Source of the DNA: Gammaproteobacteria bacterium
GTDB lineage: Bacteria; Pseudomonadota; Gammaproteobacteria; JAJFKG01
Assembly (NCBI GenBank): GCA_021773335.1
Contig: JAJFKG010000006.1
Coordinates: 99,409-163,408, forward strand
DNA: 64,000 nucleotides
Reading direction: 5' to 3'
Both the position numbers and the translations under genes were made by a program. Shown here piece by piece: positions 3,944 to 62,597 of the stretch. The notes under the pieces are model-generated. The model searched no databases, was not told the DNA's origin, and saw only the letters and a program-made list of their open reading frames with translations. How positions within the stretch are numbered: the stretch's first letter is position 1; each line of letters starts with the position of its first letter.

Positions 3944-4645
3944 ATGGCGGGCTTCAATAAATGTGTCGATAATTATGCTCAAGCACTTTCTGGCCTAACC
4001 AATAATATGACTGTCATGGTCGGTGGCTTTGGTCTATGTGGCATCCCCGAAGGTTTAATTAAGACTGTTTATGAGAATGGCATAATGGGTTTGAGGTGCA
4101 TTTCAAACAATGCCGGCGTCGATGGTTTTGGCTTGGGGCTTTGGCTAGAAAAACGTCAAATCAAAACTATGATTGGATCCTATGTCGGTGAAAATGCCTT
4201 ATTTGAACAACTCTCAATTAGCGGTGAAATGGAAGTAATTCTCACCCCACAAGGTACGCTAGCCGAAAAGATTCGTGCTGGTGGGGCAGGCATACCTGCT
4301 TTTTACACCGCAACCGGTTACGGCACTCCGGTAGCAGAAGGCAAAGAAATAAAAGCATTTAATGGCAAACCGTATGTGCTTGAAGAATCCTTCTTTGCTG
4401 ACTTTGCTCTCGTTAAAGCTTGGAAAGCCGACACCATGGGCAACCTAATCTATCGCAAAACCGCGATGAATTTTAATCCCATGATGGCGACTGCGGCCAA
4501 AATAACTGTTGCCGAAGTTGAAGAAATTGTTGCGCCGGGTGAATTGGATCCTGAAAACATTCACACGCCGGGCATTTATGTCAATCGTGTGATTAAAGGC
4601 TCATTTGAAAAACGTATCGAACAACGCACCATTAAAACTAGTTAG
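3944..4645 (+). CDS. scoA: 3-oxoacid CoA-transferase subunit A (succinyl-CoA:3-ketoacid CoA transferase, ScoA/AtoD-like)
   Basis: 233 aa with the characteristic CoA-transferase family I alpha-subunit sequence ([10 protein letters not shown]...). Confidence 0.9.
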
Positions 4646-52874: not shown

Positions 52875-54038
52875 ATGAATGATTACGCCTTGTTTACTTC
52901 TGAATCTGTTTCAGAAGGACACCCAGACAAAATCGCTGATCAAATTTCAGATGCCATACTTGACGCACTATTGGCGCAAGACCCAAATAGCCGTGTTGCG
53001 TGCGAAACTTACGTAAAAACAGGTATGGTGTTAGTTGGCGGTGAAGTGACAACACATGCCTGGGTTGACGTTGAAGAAATTGCACGCCGAGTGATTAGCG
53101 ACATTGGCTATAACCACTCTGACATGGGTTTTGATTGGGAATCTTGTGCTGTCTTAACCGCTATTGGTAAGCAATCACCTGACATTGCCCGTGGTGTTGA
53201 TGAAGATAATGACCACGAGCAAGGTGCTGGCGATCAAGGTTTGATGTTTGGTTATGCAACGAATGCTACAGAAGTATTAATGCCCGCGCCAATTACTTAT
53301 GCGCACCGTCTAGTGAAACGTCAAGCTGAATTACGCAAAAGCGGACAATTAGGCTGGCTAAGGCCTGACGCTAAAAGCCAGGTAACCATTCGCTACAACC
53401 AAGAGGGCAGGCCTACTGGCATCGACACTGTTGTATTATCAACTCAACATGATCCGGACGTTGATCAAGGTACCTTAGTTGAAGCTGTCATTGAAGAAAT
53501 TATCAAGCCAGTATTACCTACCGATTGGCTTGACAATGATACGCGTTATTTTGTTAATCCAACCGGACGCTTTGTCATTGGCGGGCCTTTAGGTGATTGT
53601 GGATTAACTGGACGTAAGATCATTGTTGACACCTACGGCGGCATGGCGCGGCATGGAGGCGGTTGTTTTTCAGGTAAGGATGCATCAAAAGTTGATCGTT
53701 CAGCAGCTTATGCTGCTCGCTATGTCGCAAAAAATCTGGTTGCAGCAGGCATTGCGGAACGTTGTGAAATCCAAGTGTCTTATGCTATCGGGGTTGCCGA
53801 ACCGACCTCCATTAGCGTAGAAACATTTGGCACCGGAAAAATCGATGAAGATAAGGTTACCGCTTTAATTCGTAAGCACTTTGATTTACGTCCTAAAGGT
53901 ATTGTTGACATGCTCGATCTCAAGCGCCCGATCTATCGCCAAACATCAGCGTACGGGCATTTTGGTCGTCAGGAGGCAGATTTTACCTGGGAACGTACTG
54001 ACAAAGCAGATGTTTTGCGAGATGAAGCCGGTCTATAA
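52875..54038 (+). CDS. metK: S-adenosylmethionine synthase
   Basis: [25 protein letters not shown] and GGGAFSGKD match MetK. Confidence 0.97.
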
Positions 54039-54086
54039 GCATCAGAAATTAAAATTTTTATTACACAATAGGGAGAGGATCTTAAC

Positions 54087-55409
54087 GTGATGACAGCAGA
54101 AACTAGCAATGCTACACAAGCAAAAACGGATCACCGTGTCGCTGATATTTCATTAGCTGAATGGGGACGCAAAGAAATCAAGATCGCTGAAACTGAAATG
54201 CCCGGTTTAATGGCACTGCGTAAGGAATATAAAAGCCAACAGCCCCTAAAAGGTGCGCGCATTGCCGGCTGTTTGCATATGACAATCCAAACTGCCGTCC
54301 TCATGGAAACCCTAATCGAGCTTGGCGCTGAAGTACGCTGGTCATCTTGTAATATTTTTTCAACCCAAGATCATGCGGCAGCGGCTATGGCAGCTGTAGA
54401 TATTCCTGTGTTTGCCTGGAAAGGCGAAAATGAAGAAGAATTTTGGTGGTGTATCGAACAAACTATCGTAGGCCCTGACAATTGGCGCCCTAACATGTTG
54501 CTCGACGACGGTGGTGACTTAACCAAAATGGTGCATGAACAGTTTCCAGAGTTACTCAAAGATATCAAAGGTATCTCTGAAGAAACAACCACTGGCGTAC
54601 ACCGCCTCTACGAAATGGCAAAAGAAAACAGCCTGAAGACACCAGCGATTAATATAAATGACTCCGTCACAAAATCTAAGTTTGATAATCTATACGGTTG
54701 TCGTGAATCATTAATTGATGGTATTAAACGCGCAACCGACGTTATGATCGCAGGCAAGATTGCTGTGGTTTTAGGCTATGGTGATGTTGGTAAAGGTTGT
54801 GCGCAGGCATTCCGTGGCATGGGCGCAACTGTATGGGTCACAGAAATTGACCCCATTTGTGCATTACAAGCGGCCATGGAAGGGTATCGCGTCGTCAACA
54901 TGGATGAAGCTGCAGCGCAAGCGGATATTTTCGTCACGTGTACCGGCAACGTCAGTGTGATTACGCATGACCATATGGCGGCTATGCACGACAATAGTAT
55001 TGTATGTAATATCGGCCATTTTGATAATGAAATCGACGTAGCTGCATTACACCAATATGAATGGGAGTCTATCAAGCCACAAGTCGATCACATTATCTTC
55101 CCTGATGGTAAACGCATTATTCTATTAGCCGAAGGCCGCTTGGTTAATTTAGGTTGTGCCACTGGTCATGCTAGTTTTGTCATGTCTAACTCATTCACCA
55201 ACCAAGTCTTAGCACAGATAGAATTATGGCAACATCATGCTAAGTATGAAAACCAAGTCTACGTGCTACCCAAAGCCCTAGATGAAAAAGTCGCTAGATT
55301 ACATTTGGACAAGATAGGGGCCAAACTCACAAAACTTAGCCCTGAACAAGCTAAATACTTAGGCCTCCCTCAAGAAGGACCCTATAAACCTGAGTACTAT
55401 CGTTACTGA
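54087..55409 (+). CDS. ahcY: adenosylhomocysteinase
   Basis: [28 protein letters not shown] and the NAD-binding GYGDVGKG match AhcY. Confidence 0.97.
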
Positions 55410-55417
55410 GAGTTCAG

Positions 55418-55445
55418 CACAAGAAATATAAGGGCAGCAATAGCT
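55418..55445 (+). terminator. perfect 9-bp hairpin (AGGGCAGC-AATA-GCTGCCCT) after ahcY, with a weak U-tail; possible terminator or attenuator before metF
   Basis: Read directly from the sequence. The following stretch ATTATGTT is only moderately U-rich. Confidence 0.45.
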
Positions 55446-55511
55446 GCCCTTATTATGTTAGTCACTCATTTTAAATATAAGAGAATAGCAAACAAAAAGT
55501 CATTAAATACC

Positions 55512-56384
55512 ATGCAATCACAACAACAGCATCAGCAACATCTTAGCTTCGAGTTTTTTCCTCCTAAAACCACTCAGGGCTGTGAAAAGCTACTTAACAC
55601 AACTCAACAATTGAGTAAATTCAACCCTCTTTTTTTCTCGGTCACATTTGGCGCTGGCGGAACGACTATTGAGGGAACACGCAGTACTGTTCTTGCTATC
55701 AATGAAGACACTCAAGTTACCACCGCACCGCATATTTCCTGCATTGGCTCAACCCGCGATAGTATCGCACGTATGTTAGATGATTATATCGCAGCAGGTG
55801 TTACGCAATTGGTTGTTTTACGTGGTGACAAGCCTTCAGGTATGGGCGGCAGTATTGGTGAGTTACGTTATGCGAATGAATTGGTAGCATTTATTAGGGA
55901 AAAAACAGCTGATCATTTCCACATCCATGTCGCTGCCTATGCTGAATTTCACCCCGAAGCGGAATGTGCGCAAACTGATTTGAATAACTTTAAACGTAAA
56001 GTTGAGGCAGGCGCTGATAGTGCCTTAACCCAATATTTTTATAACGCTGACGCCTATTTTCAGCTTATCGATAGTTGTGAAAAATTGAATATCACAATCC
56101 CCATCACGCCGGGCATTATGCCCATCACCAACTATAAACAATTAGCACGCTTCTCTGATGCCTGTGGTGCTGAAATACCACGCTGGTTACGCAAACGTTT
56201 AGAAGGTTACGGTGATGATGACTTAGCATCACTGCGTCAATTTGGTGAAGAGGTAGTAACCGACTTATGTGCCAAACTATTAAGCGCAGGCGCACCTGGC
56301 TTGCATTTTTATACATTAAATAAAGCTGAACCTAGCTTAACGATTTGCCGCAATTTGAATTTTCTCAATACTGCAAAGGTATAA
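55512..56384 (+). CDS. metF: 5,10-methylenetetrahydrofolate reductase
   Basis: LSFEFFPPKT...VTFGAGG...HISCIG...ALRGD align with E. coli MetF. The start is set at MQSQQQ because the upstream ATG at 55455 sits in the hairpin. Confidence 0.9.
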   Translation: MQSQQQHQQHLSFEFFPPKTTQGCEKLLNTTQQLSKFNPLFFSVTFGAGGTTIEGTRSTVLAINEDTQVTTAPHISCIGSTRDSIARMLDDYIAAGVTQLVVLRGDKPSGMGGSIGELRYANELVAFIREKTADHFHIHVAAYAEFHPEAECAQTDLNNFKRKVEAGADSALTQYFYNADAYFQLIDSCEKLNITIPITPGIMPITNYKQLARFSDACGAEIPRWLRKRLEGYGDDDLASLRQFGEEVVTDLCAKLLSAGAPGLHFYTLNKAEPSLTICRNLNFLNTAKV

Positions 56385-56389
56385 ATGCC

Positions 56390-57121
56390 GTGCATATCCC
56401 TCGTGTCTATCAAGCTTGTGAGCTAGCTATTGGTTGTGAGTTGGCGCTTGACCAACGTGCCTGCCACCATTTAACCAATGTATTGCGCTTACGCGAAGGC
56501 GCGCCTATCATCCTATTTAATGGTCAAGGTGGCGAATACGCTGCACTATTAATCCAGGTAAAGAAAAAGAATGTCATTGTCAAAGTACGAGAATTTCATG
56601 ATAGTTCTACAGAATCCAAATTAAGTATCCATCTTGGGCAGGCCATCTCGCGCAGCGCCAAAATGGATTTTGCCTTACAAAAAGCTGTAGAACTTGGCGT
56701 TACCCAGATAACCCCATTAATCACGCAATATTGTGCTATCAAAATATCTACTCAACAACTTGAAAAGAAATACAAGCATTGGCAAGGCATAATTATAAAT
56801 GCTTGTGAACAATCCGGACGCGCACGCATTCCAATACTGCATAAGCCCTGCCGATTAACTAGCTGGAAAGGTTTTAGTAGTATTGAGCTAGGCTTATTAC
56901 TTGAACCAAAGACAACTGCAACCTTACACGATATCATTCAAAAGCCACAATCACTTGCGCTACTCATAGGGCCAGAAGGCGGTTTAAGTACGGATGAAGT
57001 AGCACTAATGAAAGCTCAAGGTGTTAAAGCAATCAGCCTAGGCCCACGTATCTTACGTACCGAGACAGCTACGGTTTGTGCTTTATCAATTCTGCAAGCA
57101 CGTTGGGGTGATTTAGCTTAG
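56390..57121 (+). CDS. rsmE: 16S rRNA (uracil1498-N3)-methyltransferase RsmE
   Basis: (M)HIPRVYQ... N-terminus and the C-terminal SPOUT knot (LLIGPEGGLSTDEV). A GTG start just after the metF stop is inferred; the ORF-track start at 56345 overlaps metF. Confidence 0.75.
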   Translation: MHIPRVYQACELAIGCELALDQRACHHLTNVLRLREGAPIILFNGQGGEYAALLIQVKKKNVIVKVREFHDSSTESKLSIHLGQAISRSAKMDFALQKAVELGVTQITPLITQYCAIKISTQQLEKKYKHWQGIIINACEQSGRARIPILHKPCRLTSWKGFSSIELGLLLEPKTTATLHDIIQKPQSLALLIGPEGGLSTDEVALMKAQGVKAISLGPRILRTETATVCALSILQARWGDLA

Positions 57122-57339: not shown

Positions 57340-58296
57340 CTATTCCAATTCTTTTGCATAAGTTGCGATCGGTGGCAAGGTTTTAACGCTACCTTGCTGT
57401 TGTAAATACGCCGCAAACTTAGCGTAACGCTGTTTATCTAATACCGCTGGTCGCAGAGCAAAACGCGGTAAAGTTGCAAACCAAGCACGTTTATTCAATT
57501 CATTGTTAAGTTCCGGGTGCTGTTTAGCAAATACCTTCCATGTCGCCCGTGGGTGATTAACAAGATACAGAGTGCCTGCTTGCAAAGCTTGTAAAAAGCG
57601 CGGCAACCTTGGATCACCAATTTCTTTTTTATTCGTGACGATGATCAACTCATCATACACGGGCATACCACTTTCTTCGGGGAAAAATGCTCTCCCTGGC
57701 TTACCTGCTAATGCCACTTGTGTCATTTCAAAGTTACGCATCATGCCGGTAACGGCATCAACACGACCAGCCAATAGTGCCTGAGTCAAATTATAATGCA
57801 CATTAACTAGCGTTACATCTTGCCTAGTAAGCCTTGCGCGTTTTAGCATGGCATCAAGCATAATTGCATCGACACCGCCTGTACTATAACCAATACGCTT
57901 ACCTCTTAAATCTTTAAGTGACTTTATTGGTCCATCTTTCAGTACAACTAAACAATTTAACGGTGTCGCGATCAACGTGCCTATGCGCACTAATGGCAAC
58001 CCTTGCGCTATGGCTAACATAAATTGTGGCTGGTAAGTAACCGCTACATCAGTTTTGCCGGCTGCAACTAACTTGAGGGGATCAGCTGGATCCGCTGGCG
58101 CAATAAATTTAACTGGCACACCGGCTTTAGCAAAATAACCTTGCTGCTGAGCAACAAACAAAGGTGCATGATCGGGATTTACAAACCAATCTAGCATAAC
58201 CGTTAAGGGCTGCTGCTTTGTTGCGGCAAAGACAAATGTGCTAAGCAGCAACGTACCGACGAATATTAATTTCAAGCTTTGTTTCATTATCTTCAT
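57340..58296 (-). CDS. ABC transporter periplasmic substrate-binding protein, NMT1/THI5-like (ThiY-like)
   Basis: Signal peptide plus NMT1/THI5-family SBP sequence. It is the last gene of the riboswitch-controlled operon. Confidence 0.75.
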   Translation of the reverse strand: MKIMKQSLKLIFVGTLLLSTFVFAATKQQPLTVMLDWFVNPDHAPLFVAQQQGYFAKAGVPVKFIAPADPADPLKLVAAGKTDVAVTYQPQFMLAIAQGLPLVRIGTLIATPLNCLVVLKDGPIKSLKDLRGKRIGYSTGGVDAIMLDAMLKRARLTRQDVTLVNVHYNLTQALLAGRVDAVTGMMRNFEMTQVALAGKPGRAFFPEESGMPVYDELIIVTNKKEIGDPRLPRFLQALQAGTLYLVNHPRATWKVFAKQHPELNNELNKRAWFATLPRFALRPAVLDKQRYAKFAAYLQQQGSVKTLPPIATYAKELE

Positions 58297-58392
58297 TTCA
58301 CACCATGCTTATCAATTGATGTATCCTCACGAATTATTTTTTTCGATTTTACTTAACATCAATCAGTTGTGTAGCCTACTGTCTTTGTGGTT

Positions 58393-59217
58393 TTATTCGT
58401 GGGGACACGTCAGCTCATTAACCCAAGGCATCGCCATTCGTAGAAGCTTATCCACACTAAAATAAAGCGCCAGACTCATTAGAGTAACGGTAACTAACGC
58501 CGCAAACATGACATCAATTTGCATCCGGGCATTAGCATTTAACATTAAAAAACCCAAACCCGCACTTGACCCTACCCACTCACCAACGACTGCACCAATC
58601 GGTGCGATCGCAGCGGCAATGCGTAAGCCCGAAGCTAAATTCGGTAAAGCGGCGGGCACACGAATATGCCAAAGTATGCGCCAGCGTGAACCGCCCATGG
58701 TTTTAGCCAAATATAACCATCCTGGATTAGTGCGCCGTAAACCATCAAAAAATGCAGTGGTTACCGGAAAATATAACATCAAAATCGTCGTCGCTATTTT
58801 AGATGCCATACCATAACCAAACCACACAACAAACAAAGGAGCTATGGCAAAAGTTGGTAGTGCTTGGCTAATAACTAATATCGGCAATAACCAGTGCCGT
58901 AAAGGCTGAAAATACGCAATAATAAGAGCTGACATAACGCCTAGTAACGAACCACACAATAAACCTAATAAAGTTTCTGTTAACGTTAGCATCCCCTGAT
59001 GGAGCAATAAGCTACGTTGTTGATAAGCAGTTTTTAATACCGCCCCTGGCCCCGGTAAAATATAGGGTGGCAACGATCCCAACCAAACGATAGCTTGCCA
59101 AATAATTAGTAAACCGATCGTTAGCAGTATTATTCTAGATAATGGATTAATTCCCATTTTTTTCGTTAAACGAATTCGTCGATCGTAAGAAACTGGGAAC
59201 ACCCTAACATCATCCAT
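58393..59217 (-). CDS. ABC transporter permease (NitT/TauT family; ThiX-like)
   Basis: 6-TM permease with the EAA-type loop (LASGLRIAAAIAPIGAVVGE). Confidence 0.8.
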   Translation of the reverse strand: MDDVRVFPVSYDRRIRLTKKMGINPLSRIILLTIGLLIIWQAIVWLGSLPPYILPGPGAVLKTAYQQRSLLLHQGMLTLTETLLGLLCGSLLGVMSALIIAYFQPLRHWLLPILVISQALPTFAIAPLFVVWFGYGMASKIATTILMLYFPVTTAFFDGLRRTNPGWLYLAKTMGGSRWRILWHIRVPAALPNLASGLRIAAAIAPIGAVVGEWVGSSAGLGFLMLNANARMQIDVMFAALVTVTLMSLALYFSVDKLLRMAMPWVNELTCPHE

Positions 59218-59977
59218 TACGTAAGCACTCCAACAATTGTGCCTGCAAATGTAATAATTCAGTATCTTGGATATTACGAGGCTTTTCGCCGTTTAAGTGC
59301 AAAGGAGCTTTCAGCTTGGCCGGTCGTCCCTTCATGATCAACACATTATCAGCAAGGCGCAGTGCTTCTAATGGATCATGTGTCACTAGTAATACGGTTT
59401 TGTCTTTGAGTAAACGTGCAGCAATTTCTTGCAAGCGTAAGCGAGTGATTGCATCTAATTTTGAAAATGGTTCATCCATAAGTACGATAGGGCGATCTTC
59501 AATTAGGGTGCGTACTAAAGCGACTCGTTGCCGCATCCCCCCTGAGAGTGCTGCTGGTCGGCGCTCAATAACATCTCGCAAACCGACTTCCGCTAACAAA
59601 CTACGCGCCCTGCGTGCTATCGAGCTTTTATTAGCTCCCCGCAAGCTTGCACCTAATAAGACATTGTCAAACACCGACAACCAAGGTAGCAGCAAGTCAT
59701 CCTGTCCCATGTAAGCAAGATTCTCACGTACAATCCAATCGGCATCGCAGCTAATTGTAGCCTGCATCTGCGTCTGCCTTTGCTTAGGAATAATATCAGC
59801 AAGCAAATAGAGTAAACTACTTTTGCCGACACCGCTGGGTCCCAGCAGACAACTCCATTGCCCTAGCGGGATGCTACAATCGAGGTTCGAAAAGACGGCT
59901 TGCTGACCATAACGTAATGTCGCATTACGGATATGCAAGGCAGGGCACGGCTGCGTATCATTTACTTGGTAAATCAT
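59210..59977 (-). CDS. ABC transporter ATP-binding protein (ThiZ-like)
   Basis: Walker A GPSGVGKSS, the ABC signature LSGGMRQRV, and Walker B LLMDEPFSKLD. It overlaps the permease by 8 nt. Confidence 0.85.
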   Translation of the reverse strand: MIYQVNDTQPCPALHIRNATLRYGQQAVFSNLDCSIPLGQWSCLLGPSGVGKSSLLYLLADIIPKQRQTQMQATISCDADWIVRENLAYMGQDDLLLPWLSVFDNVLLGASLRGANKSSIARRARSLLAEVGLRDVIERRPAALSGGMRQRVALVRTLIEDRPIVLMDEPFSKLDAITRLRLQEIAARLLKDKTVLLVTHDPLEALRLADNVLIMKGRPAKLKAPLHLNGEKPRNIQDTELLHLQAQLLECLRNG

Positions 59978-59982
59978 GTCAC

Positions 59983-60073
59983 GCTTTCCTACGTCGGTGT
60001 TAACCGTATCAGGTTCAAAGGGTCGTTTTACGCGAATCTTGCCGTAAAACCTCTCAGCCGCAGCTCCCCTAGG
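59983..60073 (-). promoter_or_regulatory. TPP (thiamine pyrophosphate) riboswitch / THI element
   Basis: The minus-strand RNA reads GGGGAGCUGCGGCUGAGAGG...ACGACCCUUUGAACCUGAUACGGUUAACACCGACGUAGGAAAGCGUGACAUG. It matches the THI-box consensus block for block (GGGG.GC..GCUGAGA...ACCC.UUGAACCUGAUC.GGUUAAUACC.GCGUAGGGAA). The AGGAAAG at its 3' end serves as the SD for the ATPase gene, 6 nt before the ATG. Confidence 0.85.
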
Positions 60074-60599
60074 GTCAAGCCCGCTATTCTACAGCAGTAC
60101 TGCAAAAGTCCAAGTTTTTAACAAAAATATATTCCCGCCAACTACTACATTGCCCATTTTGTTTGTAAGCAATATCTCAACATCAAGTAAGCCATATCAG
60201 CTATTTATCAGTGCCACATCTGACAACATTTATTCGAAAAATTGTATCCATTTGTTTTAATTAAATATTAATATAGATTTCTTGGCTCTTTACTGTATCA
60301 AACTTAAGCAAGACAAATTTTGACCCTTGTGAAAAAAATAAGACCTGGTAAATTCACGCCCACAACCACAGTATAGCGACGAATTTTATACCCCAATATT
60401 ATTAGTCACGGCATAGCGTTAGGTAGCGGACAGGGAAGTCCGCCTTTATATTTGCCAGCAACTAACTGTAACTGTAGGCAGTATTGAGATGTACGGGTTG
60501 TCATGCTGGCAAGCAATGTGCATAAAAACAGTCAGCAATAGGGACGCCCCCTCATTTTAAGTGCTTTCGTTGGGAAATTTGAGTACATTTCTCAATAAC

Positions 60600-60706
60600 A
60601 GTTTGCAAGGAAGCGATTGTAGACATGGATGTCTAGCAAGGATGCAATTGAGGGCAAGGAGTGCCCACAAGGCCTGGGAAGGGCGGGCTCAACCCGCCCT
60701 TTCTTT
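60600..60706 (+). ncRNA. CsrA/RsmA-sequestering small RNA of the RsmY/RsmZ/CsrB class (5' end uncertain)
   Basis: There are four stem-loops with GGA in the loop: gcAAGGAAgc (60605-60614), agacaUGGAugucu (60621-60634), gcAAGGAugc (60636-60645) and ggcAAGGAgugcc (60654-60666). The second matches the CsrA SELEX consensus RUACARGGAUGU. The RNA ends in the terminator GGGCGGGC-UCAA-CCCGCCC plus UUUCUUUUU (60681-60709). The palindrome TTGAG-N7-CTCAA at 60579-60595 lies upstream. No ORF is present. Confidence 0.7.
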
Positions 60707-60827
60707 TTATGCTCACCCCCGCTCGTAAATCCGCTTATTGACCATACTAAGTTGCTATTACTTTAACAAAACGGCAAAATAATACCTCTTCATTGTGAGT
60801 ACCATCTCACACACAACAGGTTATTTA

Positions 60828-61082
60828 ATGAGTAATTCTCGACTTAAAAAACGCTTTATCGCTGGGGCGAATTGTCCGCATTGTGGCGAACTCGATAAAA
60901 TAGCGTGGTACTGCGATACATTGCAGCCAGACGATGATTATATCGCTTGTGTCCGCTGTGATTATACAGTTTCACAACAGGATATATTAAACCTCGCCAA
61001 AGCAACGACATCAGCTCCGCAAACAATTACTCCCGCAAATAGTACTAAAGAACAAGCTATCGTATGGCACGCAAAAACATAA
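60828..61082 (+). CDS. yheV: YheV-family putative zinc-ribbon protein (DUF2387)
   Basis: [22 protein letters not shown]...ACVRCDY matches E. coli YheV (RKRFIAGAKCPACQAQDSM...). The start is set at MSNSRL. Confidence 0.7.
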   Translation: MSNSRLKKRFIAGANCPHCGELDKIAWYCDTLQPDDDYIACVRCDYTVSQQDILNLAKATTSAPQTITPANSTKEQAIVWHAKT

Positions 61083-61091
61083 GAAACTTCT

Positions 61092-62597
61092 ATGCAACAA
61101 TCCTCTATGCTTGAATCGAATAATCAGCCAAGCGCTGTAGAAAACTCGCGCCAGCCACGCGGCTTGTATGTGCTGTTTTTTACTGAAATGTGGGAACGCT
61201 TTGGCTATATGGCTGTGCAAATGTTATTGGTTCTCTATCTGATCAAGAAATTTCATTATGCCGATACACATGCTTATACGCTATTAGCAACCTTTGATGT
61301 ATTGCTGTTTACCACACCAGTGATTGGCGGCTACCTTGCTGATCGTTATTTAGGATTTCGTAAAGCCATTTTTATCGGGGGTGGCTTATTAACGCTAGGT
61401 TATTTTGGCTTAGCTCTCCATGGCTACGGGCACATCTTACCACTGTCTTTAGCTTGTCTAGCTGCTGGTAATGGATTGTTTAAAGGTAATGTCTCTAGCT
61501 TACTGGGTACGTTATATTTAGCGAATGATTTTCGCCGAGATAGTGGCTTTACTTTGTTTTATATGGGTATTAATCTCGGTACATTTATCTCAAGCCTGAT
61601 CTGTGGCTACGTAGCGATAAAAATAGGGTGGGGCTACGGATTCGGATTGGCTGGCGTTGGTATGTTGATTGGTATCTTGACATTTGCTCTAGGACAAACG
61701 CGCTTAAAAGGCAAGGGTCTCCCTCCCGAACCTAGTGAACTGGCTTCACCCCGCTTTTTATTCTTGGGAGTAAAGCACTTTATTTATATCGGCATTACTG
61801 TAGCTATTTTTATTATCGCGCTTCTTATCGAACATAGCGCTATCGTAGACTGGGGTTTAGTCATTTTCAGCATGCTGACTCTTATCTATGTCATTTCGCT
61901 GGCATTGCAACAACCGAAACAACAGCGTAATAAATTATTCGTGCTATTGCTGTTAATGCTTTTCTCCATTGTATTTTGGGCCATCTATCAACAAATGTTT
62001 CTATCCAGTACGTTGTTTATCAATCGTGAAGTCAACCGCCATGTGTTTGACTGGCTAATTCCCACCCCCATGTTTACCGCTCTTAATCCATTCTTAATTA
62101 TTATTTTTGCACCGTTGTTGGCTGTACTTTGGATGAAATTATCAAAACATAAACGCAACATTTCGATCGCGGGGAAATTTGCATTAGCCATGCTCATGAT
62201 TGGCTTAGGCTATTATTTATTGGCTTATGGTATTTCTAGTGCCGCTAATAAGGCAGCCGTTGCTGTCTATTGGGTTTTCATCTGCTATTTTTTGCAAACT
62301 ATAGGTGAACTTTTCTTATCACCGATTGGCTTATCTGCTGTTACATCGCTGACACCACCGCGCTTTGTGGGCATGATGATGGGTGTTTGGTTTCTATCAT
62401 TCGCGGCATCTAATGCCTTGGCAGGCAAGCTCGCAAATTTGGCCAATATCCCAAAAACAGAGACTGACCCTGTTCTCCTCGCTAGCACTTACCACCATGT
62501 GTTTACGATATTTGGCTATCTCGGCATAGGTATTGGTATTTGCTTGCTTCTATTGACACCCTTGCTAAAAAAAATAACCGACAAGCAAAACACGTAA
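61092..62597 (+). CDS. proton-dependent oligopeptide transporter (POT/PTR2 family; DtpA/DtpT-like)
   Basis: FTEMWERFGYMAVQMLLVLYL matches the PTR2 signature ExxERFxYYG. It is a 501-aa, 14-TM type. Confidence 0.85.
   Translation: MQQSSMLESNNQPSAVENSRQPRGLYVLFFTEMWERFGYMAVQMLLVLYLIKKFHYADTHAYTLLATFDVLLFTTPVIGGYLADRYLGFRKAIFIGGGLLTLGYFGLALHGYGHILPLSLACLAAGNGLFKGNVSSLLGTLYLANDFRRDSGFTLFYMGINLGTFISSLICGYVAIKIGWGYGFGLAGVGMLIGILTFALGQTRLKGKGLPPEPSELASPRFLFLGVKHFIYIGITVAIFIIALLIEHSAIVDWGLVIFSMLTLIYVISLALQQPKQQRNKLFVLLLLMLFSIVFWAIYQQMFLSSTLFINREVNRHVFDWLIPTPMFTALNPFLIIIFAPLLAVLWMKLSKHKRNISIAGKFALAMLMIGLGYYLLAYGISSAANKAAVAVYWVFICYFLQTIGELFLSPIGLSAVTSLTPPRFVGMMMGVWFLSFAASNALAGKLANLANIPKTETDPVLLASTYHHVFTIFGYLGIGIGICLLLLTPLLKKITDKQNT

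Follow-up and report, generated by a model that had tools for sequence, protein, structure and literature searches.

Direct translation attenuation was defined by Barrick & Breaker (2007), and TPP riboswitches are among the commonest users of this mechanism (PMC2258182). According to the same source, these mechanisms had already been predicted for TPP riboswitches in a comparative study of 2002. Among the genes regulated by THI elements are those of the transporter thiXYZ (PMC2211319). Formylaminopyrimidine is imported by ThiXYZ/ThiY and is then converted by YlmB, TenA and ThiD to HMP-PP in a route of HMP salvage (PMC3020362). In a mechanistic review of 2024, TPP riboswitches are listed only under 'strand exchange' and are absent from the examples of direct occlusion (PMC10907184). 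The literature that we searched contained no experimental work on a TPP riboswitch that lacks a platform, an absence that is weak evidence. Here we describe a locus within a 64,000-nucleotide stretch of gammaproteobacterial DNA (the window) at which a TPP riboswitch probably makes up the entire 5' leader of a ThiXYZ-family operon and acts by direct translation attenuation, without a separate expression platform.

A covariance-model scan of the whole window against the 4227 families of Rfam 15 returned a match to RF00059 (TPP) on the minus strand at 60080..59969, scoring 63.5 bits against a gathering score of 54.3. This was the sole gathering-level Rfam match in the 64 kb. The match covers model positions 1-105 of 105, with an E-value of 5.8e-12 in a local scan and of 3.9e-10 over the whole window, which rules out a chance match as the source of the score. 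A family-specific covariance model, R1, which was built from 38 aptamers with P1 added, scores the same aptamer at 66.9 bits (59972-60086). An initial annotation of this DNA had placed a THI-box aptamer on the minus strand at 59978-60085 and had called for a covariance-model search with RF00059; coordinates and strand were both right, and the search that it called for gave a score above gathering. An independent Logan assembly (L081) agrees with the window at every base from 61296 to 57255.

The full-length aptamer (59969..60080, minus strand) has all of its signature blocks in place, namely GGGGAGC (P2/P3), CUGAGA, P3a, ACCCUUUGAACCUGAU, the P4/P5 arm and CGUAGGA. The RF00059 alignment places a minimal P3 (GC/GC with a UGCG loop, 60064-60057) flanking CUGAGA, which is the pyrimidine-sensing junction J3/2 (60052..60057). 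CUGAGA aligns to invariant positions of the model, and its columns are nearly invariant among 38 relatives. The alignment and folding together define the optional stem-loop P3a (GUUUUACG...CGUAAAAC, 60025..60050) and the pyrophosphate-sensor arm P4-P5 (59988..60013), both on the minus strand. Within this arm, P4 is formed by CCUG (60013-60010) with UAGG (59991-59988) and P5 by CGG with CCG. The ligand-contact blocks (CUGAGA; ACCUGAU...CG.AGG) are intact and fall on invariant model columns, with the exception of the outer pair of P5, which is an A.A mismatch. Judged by its sequence, the window element is a genuine, ordinary TPP riboswitch, and it is predicted to bind the ligand.

The closing helix P1 can be drawn in more than one register. 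In the cmscan alignment the 5' strand of P1 (ACCCU, 60071..60075, minus strand) pairs with AGCGU at 59981-59985, with a central C.C mismatch. Constrained folding suggests an alternative 5' strand (CG.GCUU, 60077..60083, minus strand) that would pair with AAGC.UG at 59980-59986 and leave GACCCU as a linker to P2. The Rfam-register P1 costs energy under constrained folding, the core alone folding at -20.4 kcal/mol and the core with this P1 at -18.8 kcal/mol. The distal register, GCUU (60080-60077) with AAGC (59986-59983), folds better at -22.4 to -24.9 kcal/mol and can be extended by C60083-G59980 and G60082-U59981; the value of -24.9 kcal/mol, obtained with the alternative helix at 60077..60083, is the best among three P1 registers. 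The candidate P1 registers are ACCCU/AGCGU, UGAC/GUGA and GCUU/AAGC. By these folding models, P1 in the window copy is strong in neither the Rfam nor the distal register. In the family register the window forms two of the four P1 pairs, and at least three are formed by 58 of 67 sequences. In the collections searched, no relative lies between 58% and 100% identity, the best genome locus being at 60%, so that none is close enough to show whether the weak P1 is conserved. Unconstrained minimum-free-energy folding of the leader failed to recover the aptamer (z = -0.98). Folding of a single sequence tells nothing useful about this three-way junction, and we therefore relied on covariance models instead.

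The sole purine-rich candidate for a ribosome binding site (RBS) lies inside the aptamer. This Shine-Dalgarno (SD)-like sequence, AGGAAAG (59984..59990, minus strand), is split in the Rfam register: AGG (59990-59988) forms the 3' strand of P4 and pairs with CCU at 60013-60011, AA (59987-59986) falls in the junction between P4 and P1, and AG (59985-59984) falls in P1. In the alternative register (GCUU/AAGC), the AAG of the SD falls in P1. The initial annotation had taken AGGAAAG for the 3' strand of the closing helix; the SD does lie within the aptamer, but in the Rfam register it is divided among P4, junction and P1, with only AG in P1. The distal register of P1 fits that description better. 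In the unconstrained thermodynamic ensemble the AGG of the SD is about 80% paired, and P4/P5 is predicted to form without ligand.

The start codon of the ATPase gene follows immediately. This ATG (59975..59977, minus strand) is the first possible start in the open reading frame, and it lies 3 nt past the last nucleotide of P1 and 8 nt past AGGAA. Neither a terminator-like site nor an extra or sequestor hairpin was found between the aptamer and the ATG (minus strand, near 59900-60000). Transcription attenuation is ruled out, as there is no room for it and no terminator. The layout is the one by which direct translation attenuation is recognized: the only RBS is inside the aptamer, the spacing from SD to start codon is normal and no hairpin intervenes. 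Upstream of the aptamer, a possible promoter was picked out by eye (60086..60113, minus strand), with a candidate -35 element TTGGAC (60113-60108), a 16-nt spacer and a candidate -10 element TAGAAT (60091-60086). Transcription from it would begin at about 60079-60081, where the aptamer has its 5' edge. A sigma-70 promoter scan gave no match immediately 5' of the aptamer, and the TTGGAC-16-TAGAAT candidate is below the threshold of that scan.

For comparison we collected, with one genome per species, 80 loci that encode relatives of the binding protein at 51-60% identity. These loci are mostly from Alphaproteobacteria, many of them named Rhodospirillaceae or Rhodospirillales, with some from Gammaproteobacteria and from Desulfobulbus-type Deltaproteobacteria. 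The gene order ATPase, permease, binding protein is kept in most of them. By R1, 66 of the 80 loci have a TPP riboswitch upstream of the operon and on its strand. Six of the 14 R1-negative loci are contigs that end at or inside the operon; with these left out, the riboswitch is present at 66 of 74 informative loci. A strict regular expression for the THI box missed 15 loci that were later found by Rfam or R1, and Rfam confirmed the tested subset of loci that were negative by regular expression. At eight loci (L010, L015, L025, L026, L054, L058, L062 and L076) the upstream sequence is present and neither model finds a TPP riboswitch. Two of these, from Desulfocapsa (L010) and Desulfobulbus (L025), have thiD fused upstream though they lack the riboswitch, which indicates that a thiamine-related function can persist without it.

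Covariation supports the fold across the family. In a model-based alignment of 67 sequences, which was itself fitted to the model, 94% of cells were standard-paired, compared with 35-54% when the partners were slid by 1-3 columns. Compensatory changes occur at 14 pairs, and the observed scores were reached by none of 500 shuffles. Two-sided changes are seen at each of the four P1 pairs (in 13, 32, 15 and 26 sequences), and five of five P3a pairs covary. MAFFT with RNAalifold missed P1, where the sequences were misaligned, and was replaced by a helix search in each sequence and by the model-based alignment. The helix search, which treats each sequence independently, recovered P1 helices as varied as CACU/AGUG, CUCG/CGAG, GCACGA/UCGUGC, UUGCG/CGCAG and UCACUGG/CCAGUGA.

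The spacing between the aptamer core and the start codon is conserved as well. In 34 of the 38 ATPase-first operons with an aptamer defined by regular expression, the conserved AGGRA is followed at 7-14 nt by an in-frame start; this start is mostly ATG and in some cases GTG or TTG, and in the window the gap is 8 nt. Judging from these sequences, the placement of the RBS within the aptamer is the rule for the ATPase-first operon family and no peculiarity of the window locus. The proposal in the initial annotation of a translational OFF switch with the SD in the aptamer is, as far as the layout goes, borne out by the ATG spacing, the lack of a terminator and the same arrangement in 34 of 38 relatives. 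In three Azospirillum loci (L031, 3435-3501; L047, 3420-3480; L067, 3434-3500), the ATG just past the aptamer (GTGATGG) does not share the frame of the ATPase homology, and the first start that does is found 44 nt downstream; a short leader open reading frame, a different true start or an assembly issue are all possible. Four further loci (L032, L037, L051 and L060, at about 4000-4160) carry a second subtype of TPP aptamer (GAGGGGUGCUCG...CUGAGAUGGCC...) located 90-113 nt ahead of operons that begin with the permease gene. These four operons yielded no ATPase relative, and their leaders have room for a conventional platform, unlike those of the ATPase-first operons.

The operon itself runs on the minus strand in the order ATPase, permease, binding protein. 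The ABC ATPase (ThiZ-like, 255 aa) is encoded at 59210..59977 (PF00005, E 7.7e-25), the ABC permease (ThiX-like) at 58393..59217 (PF00528, E 2.5e-33) and the periplasmic substrate-binding protein (ThiY-like, NMT1/THI5 fold), which has a signal-like N-terminus, at 57340..58296 (PF09084, E 4e-69). The permease open reading frame overlaps the ATPase stop by 8 nt, and its tblastn homology to relatives begins at residue 40. The true start of the permease may be an internal methionine at residue 21 (MGINPL...), which would abolish the overlap. The closest solved relative of the binding protein is 3IX1, the N-formyl-4-amino-5-aminomethyl-2-methylpyrimidine-binding protein ThiY of B. halodurans (E 1.2e-36). 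It is followed by the yeast HMP-P synthases THI5/THI13 (E 1e-27 to 1e-29), THI5 being the second-best PDB match at 2.4e-29; the PDB relatives SsuA (E 1.5e-05) and NrtA (E 1.9e-04) are far weaker. A transporter of sulfonate, taurine or nitrate is ruled out by NCBIfam scores far under their cut-offs; for SsuA_fam the binding protein scores 76.9 bits against a cut-off of 163.5. An HMP-P synthase of the THI5/NMT1 type, which would be cytosolic, free of a signal peptide and encoded outside an ABC operon, does not fit either, given the signal-like N-terminus (MKIMKQSLKLIFVGTLLLSTFVFA) and the position of the gene after those for permease and ATPase.

Genes for thiamine metabolism adjoin the operon in several relatives. 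In eight loci thiD (PF08543, E down to 1e-99) lies directly upstream of the ATPase gene, and in four (L016, L027, L046 and L061) thiM and/or thiE lie upstream of thiD. The order is riboswitch, thiM, a ThiL-like gene, thiD and transporter in L016; riboswitch, thiE, thiD and transporter in L046; and riboswitch, thiM, thiE, thiD and transporter in L061. In L027 the riboswitch is followed by thiM and a gene for a 547-aa protein with a ThiD C-terminal half, the transporter genes being farther downstream. At another locus (L058) tenA lies immediately 3' of the binding-protein gene. Within the 64-kb window itself, none of thiD, tenA, thiE, thiM or thiL was found. The evidence supports an importer that would take up the pyrimidine half of thiamine, be it HMP, aminopyrimidine or formylaminopyrimidine. 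The view of the initial annotation that this is a transporter for thiamine-pyrimidine salvage thus gains support from the similarity to ThiY/3IX1, the riboswitches at 66 of 80 loci and the linkage to thiD, thiE, thiM and tenA. Its description of the ABC system as otherwise generic does not stand, since ATPase homologues at JGI already carry the name 'putative hydroxymethylpyrimidine transport system ATP-binding protein'.

The exact transporter proteins were seen only on one NCBI contig and in the Logan run SRR15505517. The nearest relatives of the transporter genes (57340-59977, minus strand), at up to 60% identity, are mostly alphaproteobacterial, in contrast with the MetK of the window, which shares no more than 81% identity with any other protein and 77-81% with MetK of Gammaproteobacteria (Pseudohongiella, a Solemya gill symbiont). 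This contrast could reflect an old horizontal transfer or sparse sampling. MetK belongs to a putative methyl-cycle cluster on the plus strand (52875-57121), in which metK, ahcY and metF, named from their translations, are followed by an rsmE-like gene; MetK is the sole member of this cluster confirmed, its domains having been recognized through homologues. Nowhere in the window does a SAM or SAH riboswitch score at the Rfam gathering level. A candidate small RNA (60600-60709) that may titrate CsrA/RsmA lies on the plus strand, in the 700 nt of intergenic DNA upstream of the TPP riboswitch. It has four hairpins with loops that present GGA (AAGGAA, UGGAU, AGGA, AAGGAG), a fold z-score of -2.1 and, at its end, a strong intrinsic terminator (60676-60704 plus a T-run). 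Its Rfam scores are below threshold: 22.2 bits for PrrB/RsmZ (RF00166; gathering 44, E 0.0083) and 24.2 bits for ncS01. Beyond it, divergent from the riboswitch operon, genes for a DUF2387 zinc-ribbon-like small protein and, directly after it, for a POT/PTR2-family peptide transporter lie on the plus strand at 60795-62597.

From the layout of the leader we infer that TPP binding would exclude the ribosome. At high TPP, the three-way junction of P1, P2/P3 and P4/P5 would be locked in a compact state, and the locked aptamer would hold the SD purines and the nucleotides near the AUG in or against the fold, blocking 30S binding. At low TPP, the weak P1 and the 4-bp P4 would be opened by the ribosome and the operon would be translated. 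Because the AGG is paired in P4 to such an extent even without constraints, the ligand may act less on the SD itself than on P1, the nucleotides around the start codon and the compaction of the tertiary structure. Repression may be reinforced by Rho-dependent polarity, as in E. coli. Counting against this explanation are the weak P1 of the window, the predicted folding of P4/P5 without ligand, the A.A pair in P5 and the absence of thiD, tenA, thiE and thiM from the 64 kb.

It is possible, if on the doubtful side, that the riboswitch is real but has its main output at the level of the mRNA: blocked translation would expose the early ATPase open reading frame to Rho-dependent termination or RNase, and SD occlusion alone would add little. 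E. coli TPP riboswitches offer the precedent. Such an output would be in keeping with the predicted sequestration of the AGG in P4 with or without ligand, with the dual translational and Rho control noted for TPP riboswitches and with the modest SD occlusion of some direct-occlusion switches (PMC10907184). It would nevertheless complement direct translation attenuation, since an initial block of translation is still needed, and the conserved spacing of 7-14 nt from AGGRA to the start argues for selection on the RBS function of the aptamer core. We consider it far less probable still that the riboswitch of the window is degenerating, with a good score but no switching, so that the operon would be constitutive or controlled by other means. 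The P1 that is weak in every register, the A.A in P5 and the minimal P3 of 2-3 bp would suit such decay, as would the rank of the window, 48th of 67 matches under the family model, and the isolation of the lineage, for which no homologue falls between 58% and 100% identity. Yet all blocks that contact the ligand are intact, the Rfam score is over gathering, many relatives have short P3 stems or AGGAA variants, and a weak P1 is what would be expected where the ribosome must open P1 without ligand.

The substrate is a separate matter. A TPP riboswitch indicates only that the cargo is thiamine-related, and the substrate of the transporter might be thiamine as a whole, or a related compound such as a thiazole precursor, in place of the pyrimidine moiety. 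ThiY is listed under 'Pyrimidine(/B1) transport' (PMC10881298), the identity of the binding protein to ThiY is moderate, and the homologue RibXY, controlled by an FMN riboswitch, shows that the fold can switch substrate (PMC3766115). We regard this reading as unlikely nonetheless: the closest solved relatives all handle pyrimidines (ThiY with FAMP at 1.2e-36, THI5/THI13 at 1e-27 to 1e-29), fusions to the operon involve thiD, which encodes the HMP kinase, more often than any other gene, and one locus has tenA after the operon. Import of the pyrimidine half of thiamine under direct translation attenuation by a TPP riboswitch is the account that we prefer.

The comparison also bears on the family as a whole. 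It is about as likely as not that the TPP riboswitches linked to thiZXY make up a large and coherent proteobacterial subclass, maybe one of pure direct occlusion in which the aptamer core is the SD, with the window copy and its very weak P1 as an extreme case in which tertiary compaction driven by TPP, and not the stability of P1, gates the ribosome. Such a subclass may be marked by a minimal P3, the presence of P3a, a P1 of 4-7 bp and a start codon 7-14 nt after AGGRA. For the window, what is gained is a functional annotation: an ABC transporter of a poorly sampled gammaproteobacterium would carry out TPP-repressed uptake of a pyrimidine precursor of thiamine. Annotation of this kind helps when vitamin-B1 auxotrophy and vitamer exchange are to be predicted from environmental genomes. 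The platform-free layout that prevails for this operon in Alphaproteobacteria could serve as a small natural model in which to test direct occlusion by TPP riboswitches. No new question is opened and nothing known is overturned.

The locus is nothing new in kind, as both thiXYZ under THI-element control and the placement of the RBS in the aptamer were already described in 2002-2007. With the direct-attenuation subtype of the TPP riboswitch or THI element (Rodionov 2002; PMC2258182) it shares P1-P5 with the optional P3a, CUGAGA and CGUAGG, the purine-rich 3' core that serves as RBS, a start codon right after P1 and the lack of an expression platform. It differs in that it is found here in a gammaproteobacterium, in that the layout prevails for this operon in Alphaproteobacteria, and in that P1 of the window is weaker than that of its relatives. 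The ThiXYZ system of B. halodurans (3IX1) has the same three components, a binding protein of the NMT1/THI5 fold, a BPD_transp_1 permease and an ABC ATPase, and is likewise under TPP-riboswitch control. In the window, however, the order is ATPase, permease and binding protein and not X-Y-Z, the binding protein has a signal of the Gram-negative periplasmic type, sequence relatedness is moderate and no ylmB, tenA or thiD is nearby.

The thiM, thiB (tbpA) and thiC riboswitches of E. coli, which are also proteobacterial, belong to the same aptamer class and follow the same OFF logic at translation initiation, which for the window is a prediction. The E. coli riboswitches use a downstream platform with strand exchange between anti-SD and anti-anti-SD (PMC10578472, PMC11487190, PMC10907184); in the window there is no room for one. 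The closest parallels in architecture are outside the TPP class. In the SAM-II, SAM-III (SMK) and preQ1 riboswitches the RBS is likewise integrated in the ligand-binding fold, so that aptamer and platform are one unit (PMC10907184). These riboswitches bind other ligands with other folds, mostly pseudoknots, and their occlusion of the RBS has been shown experimentally, whereas that proposed for the window is inferred from its layout.
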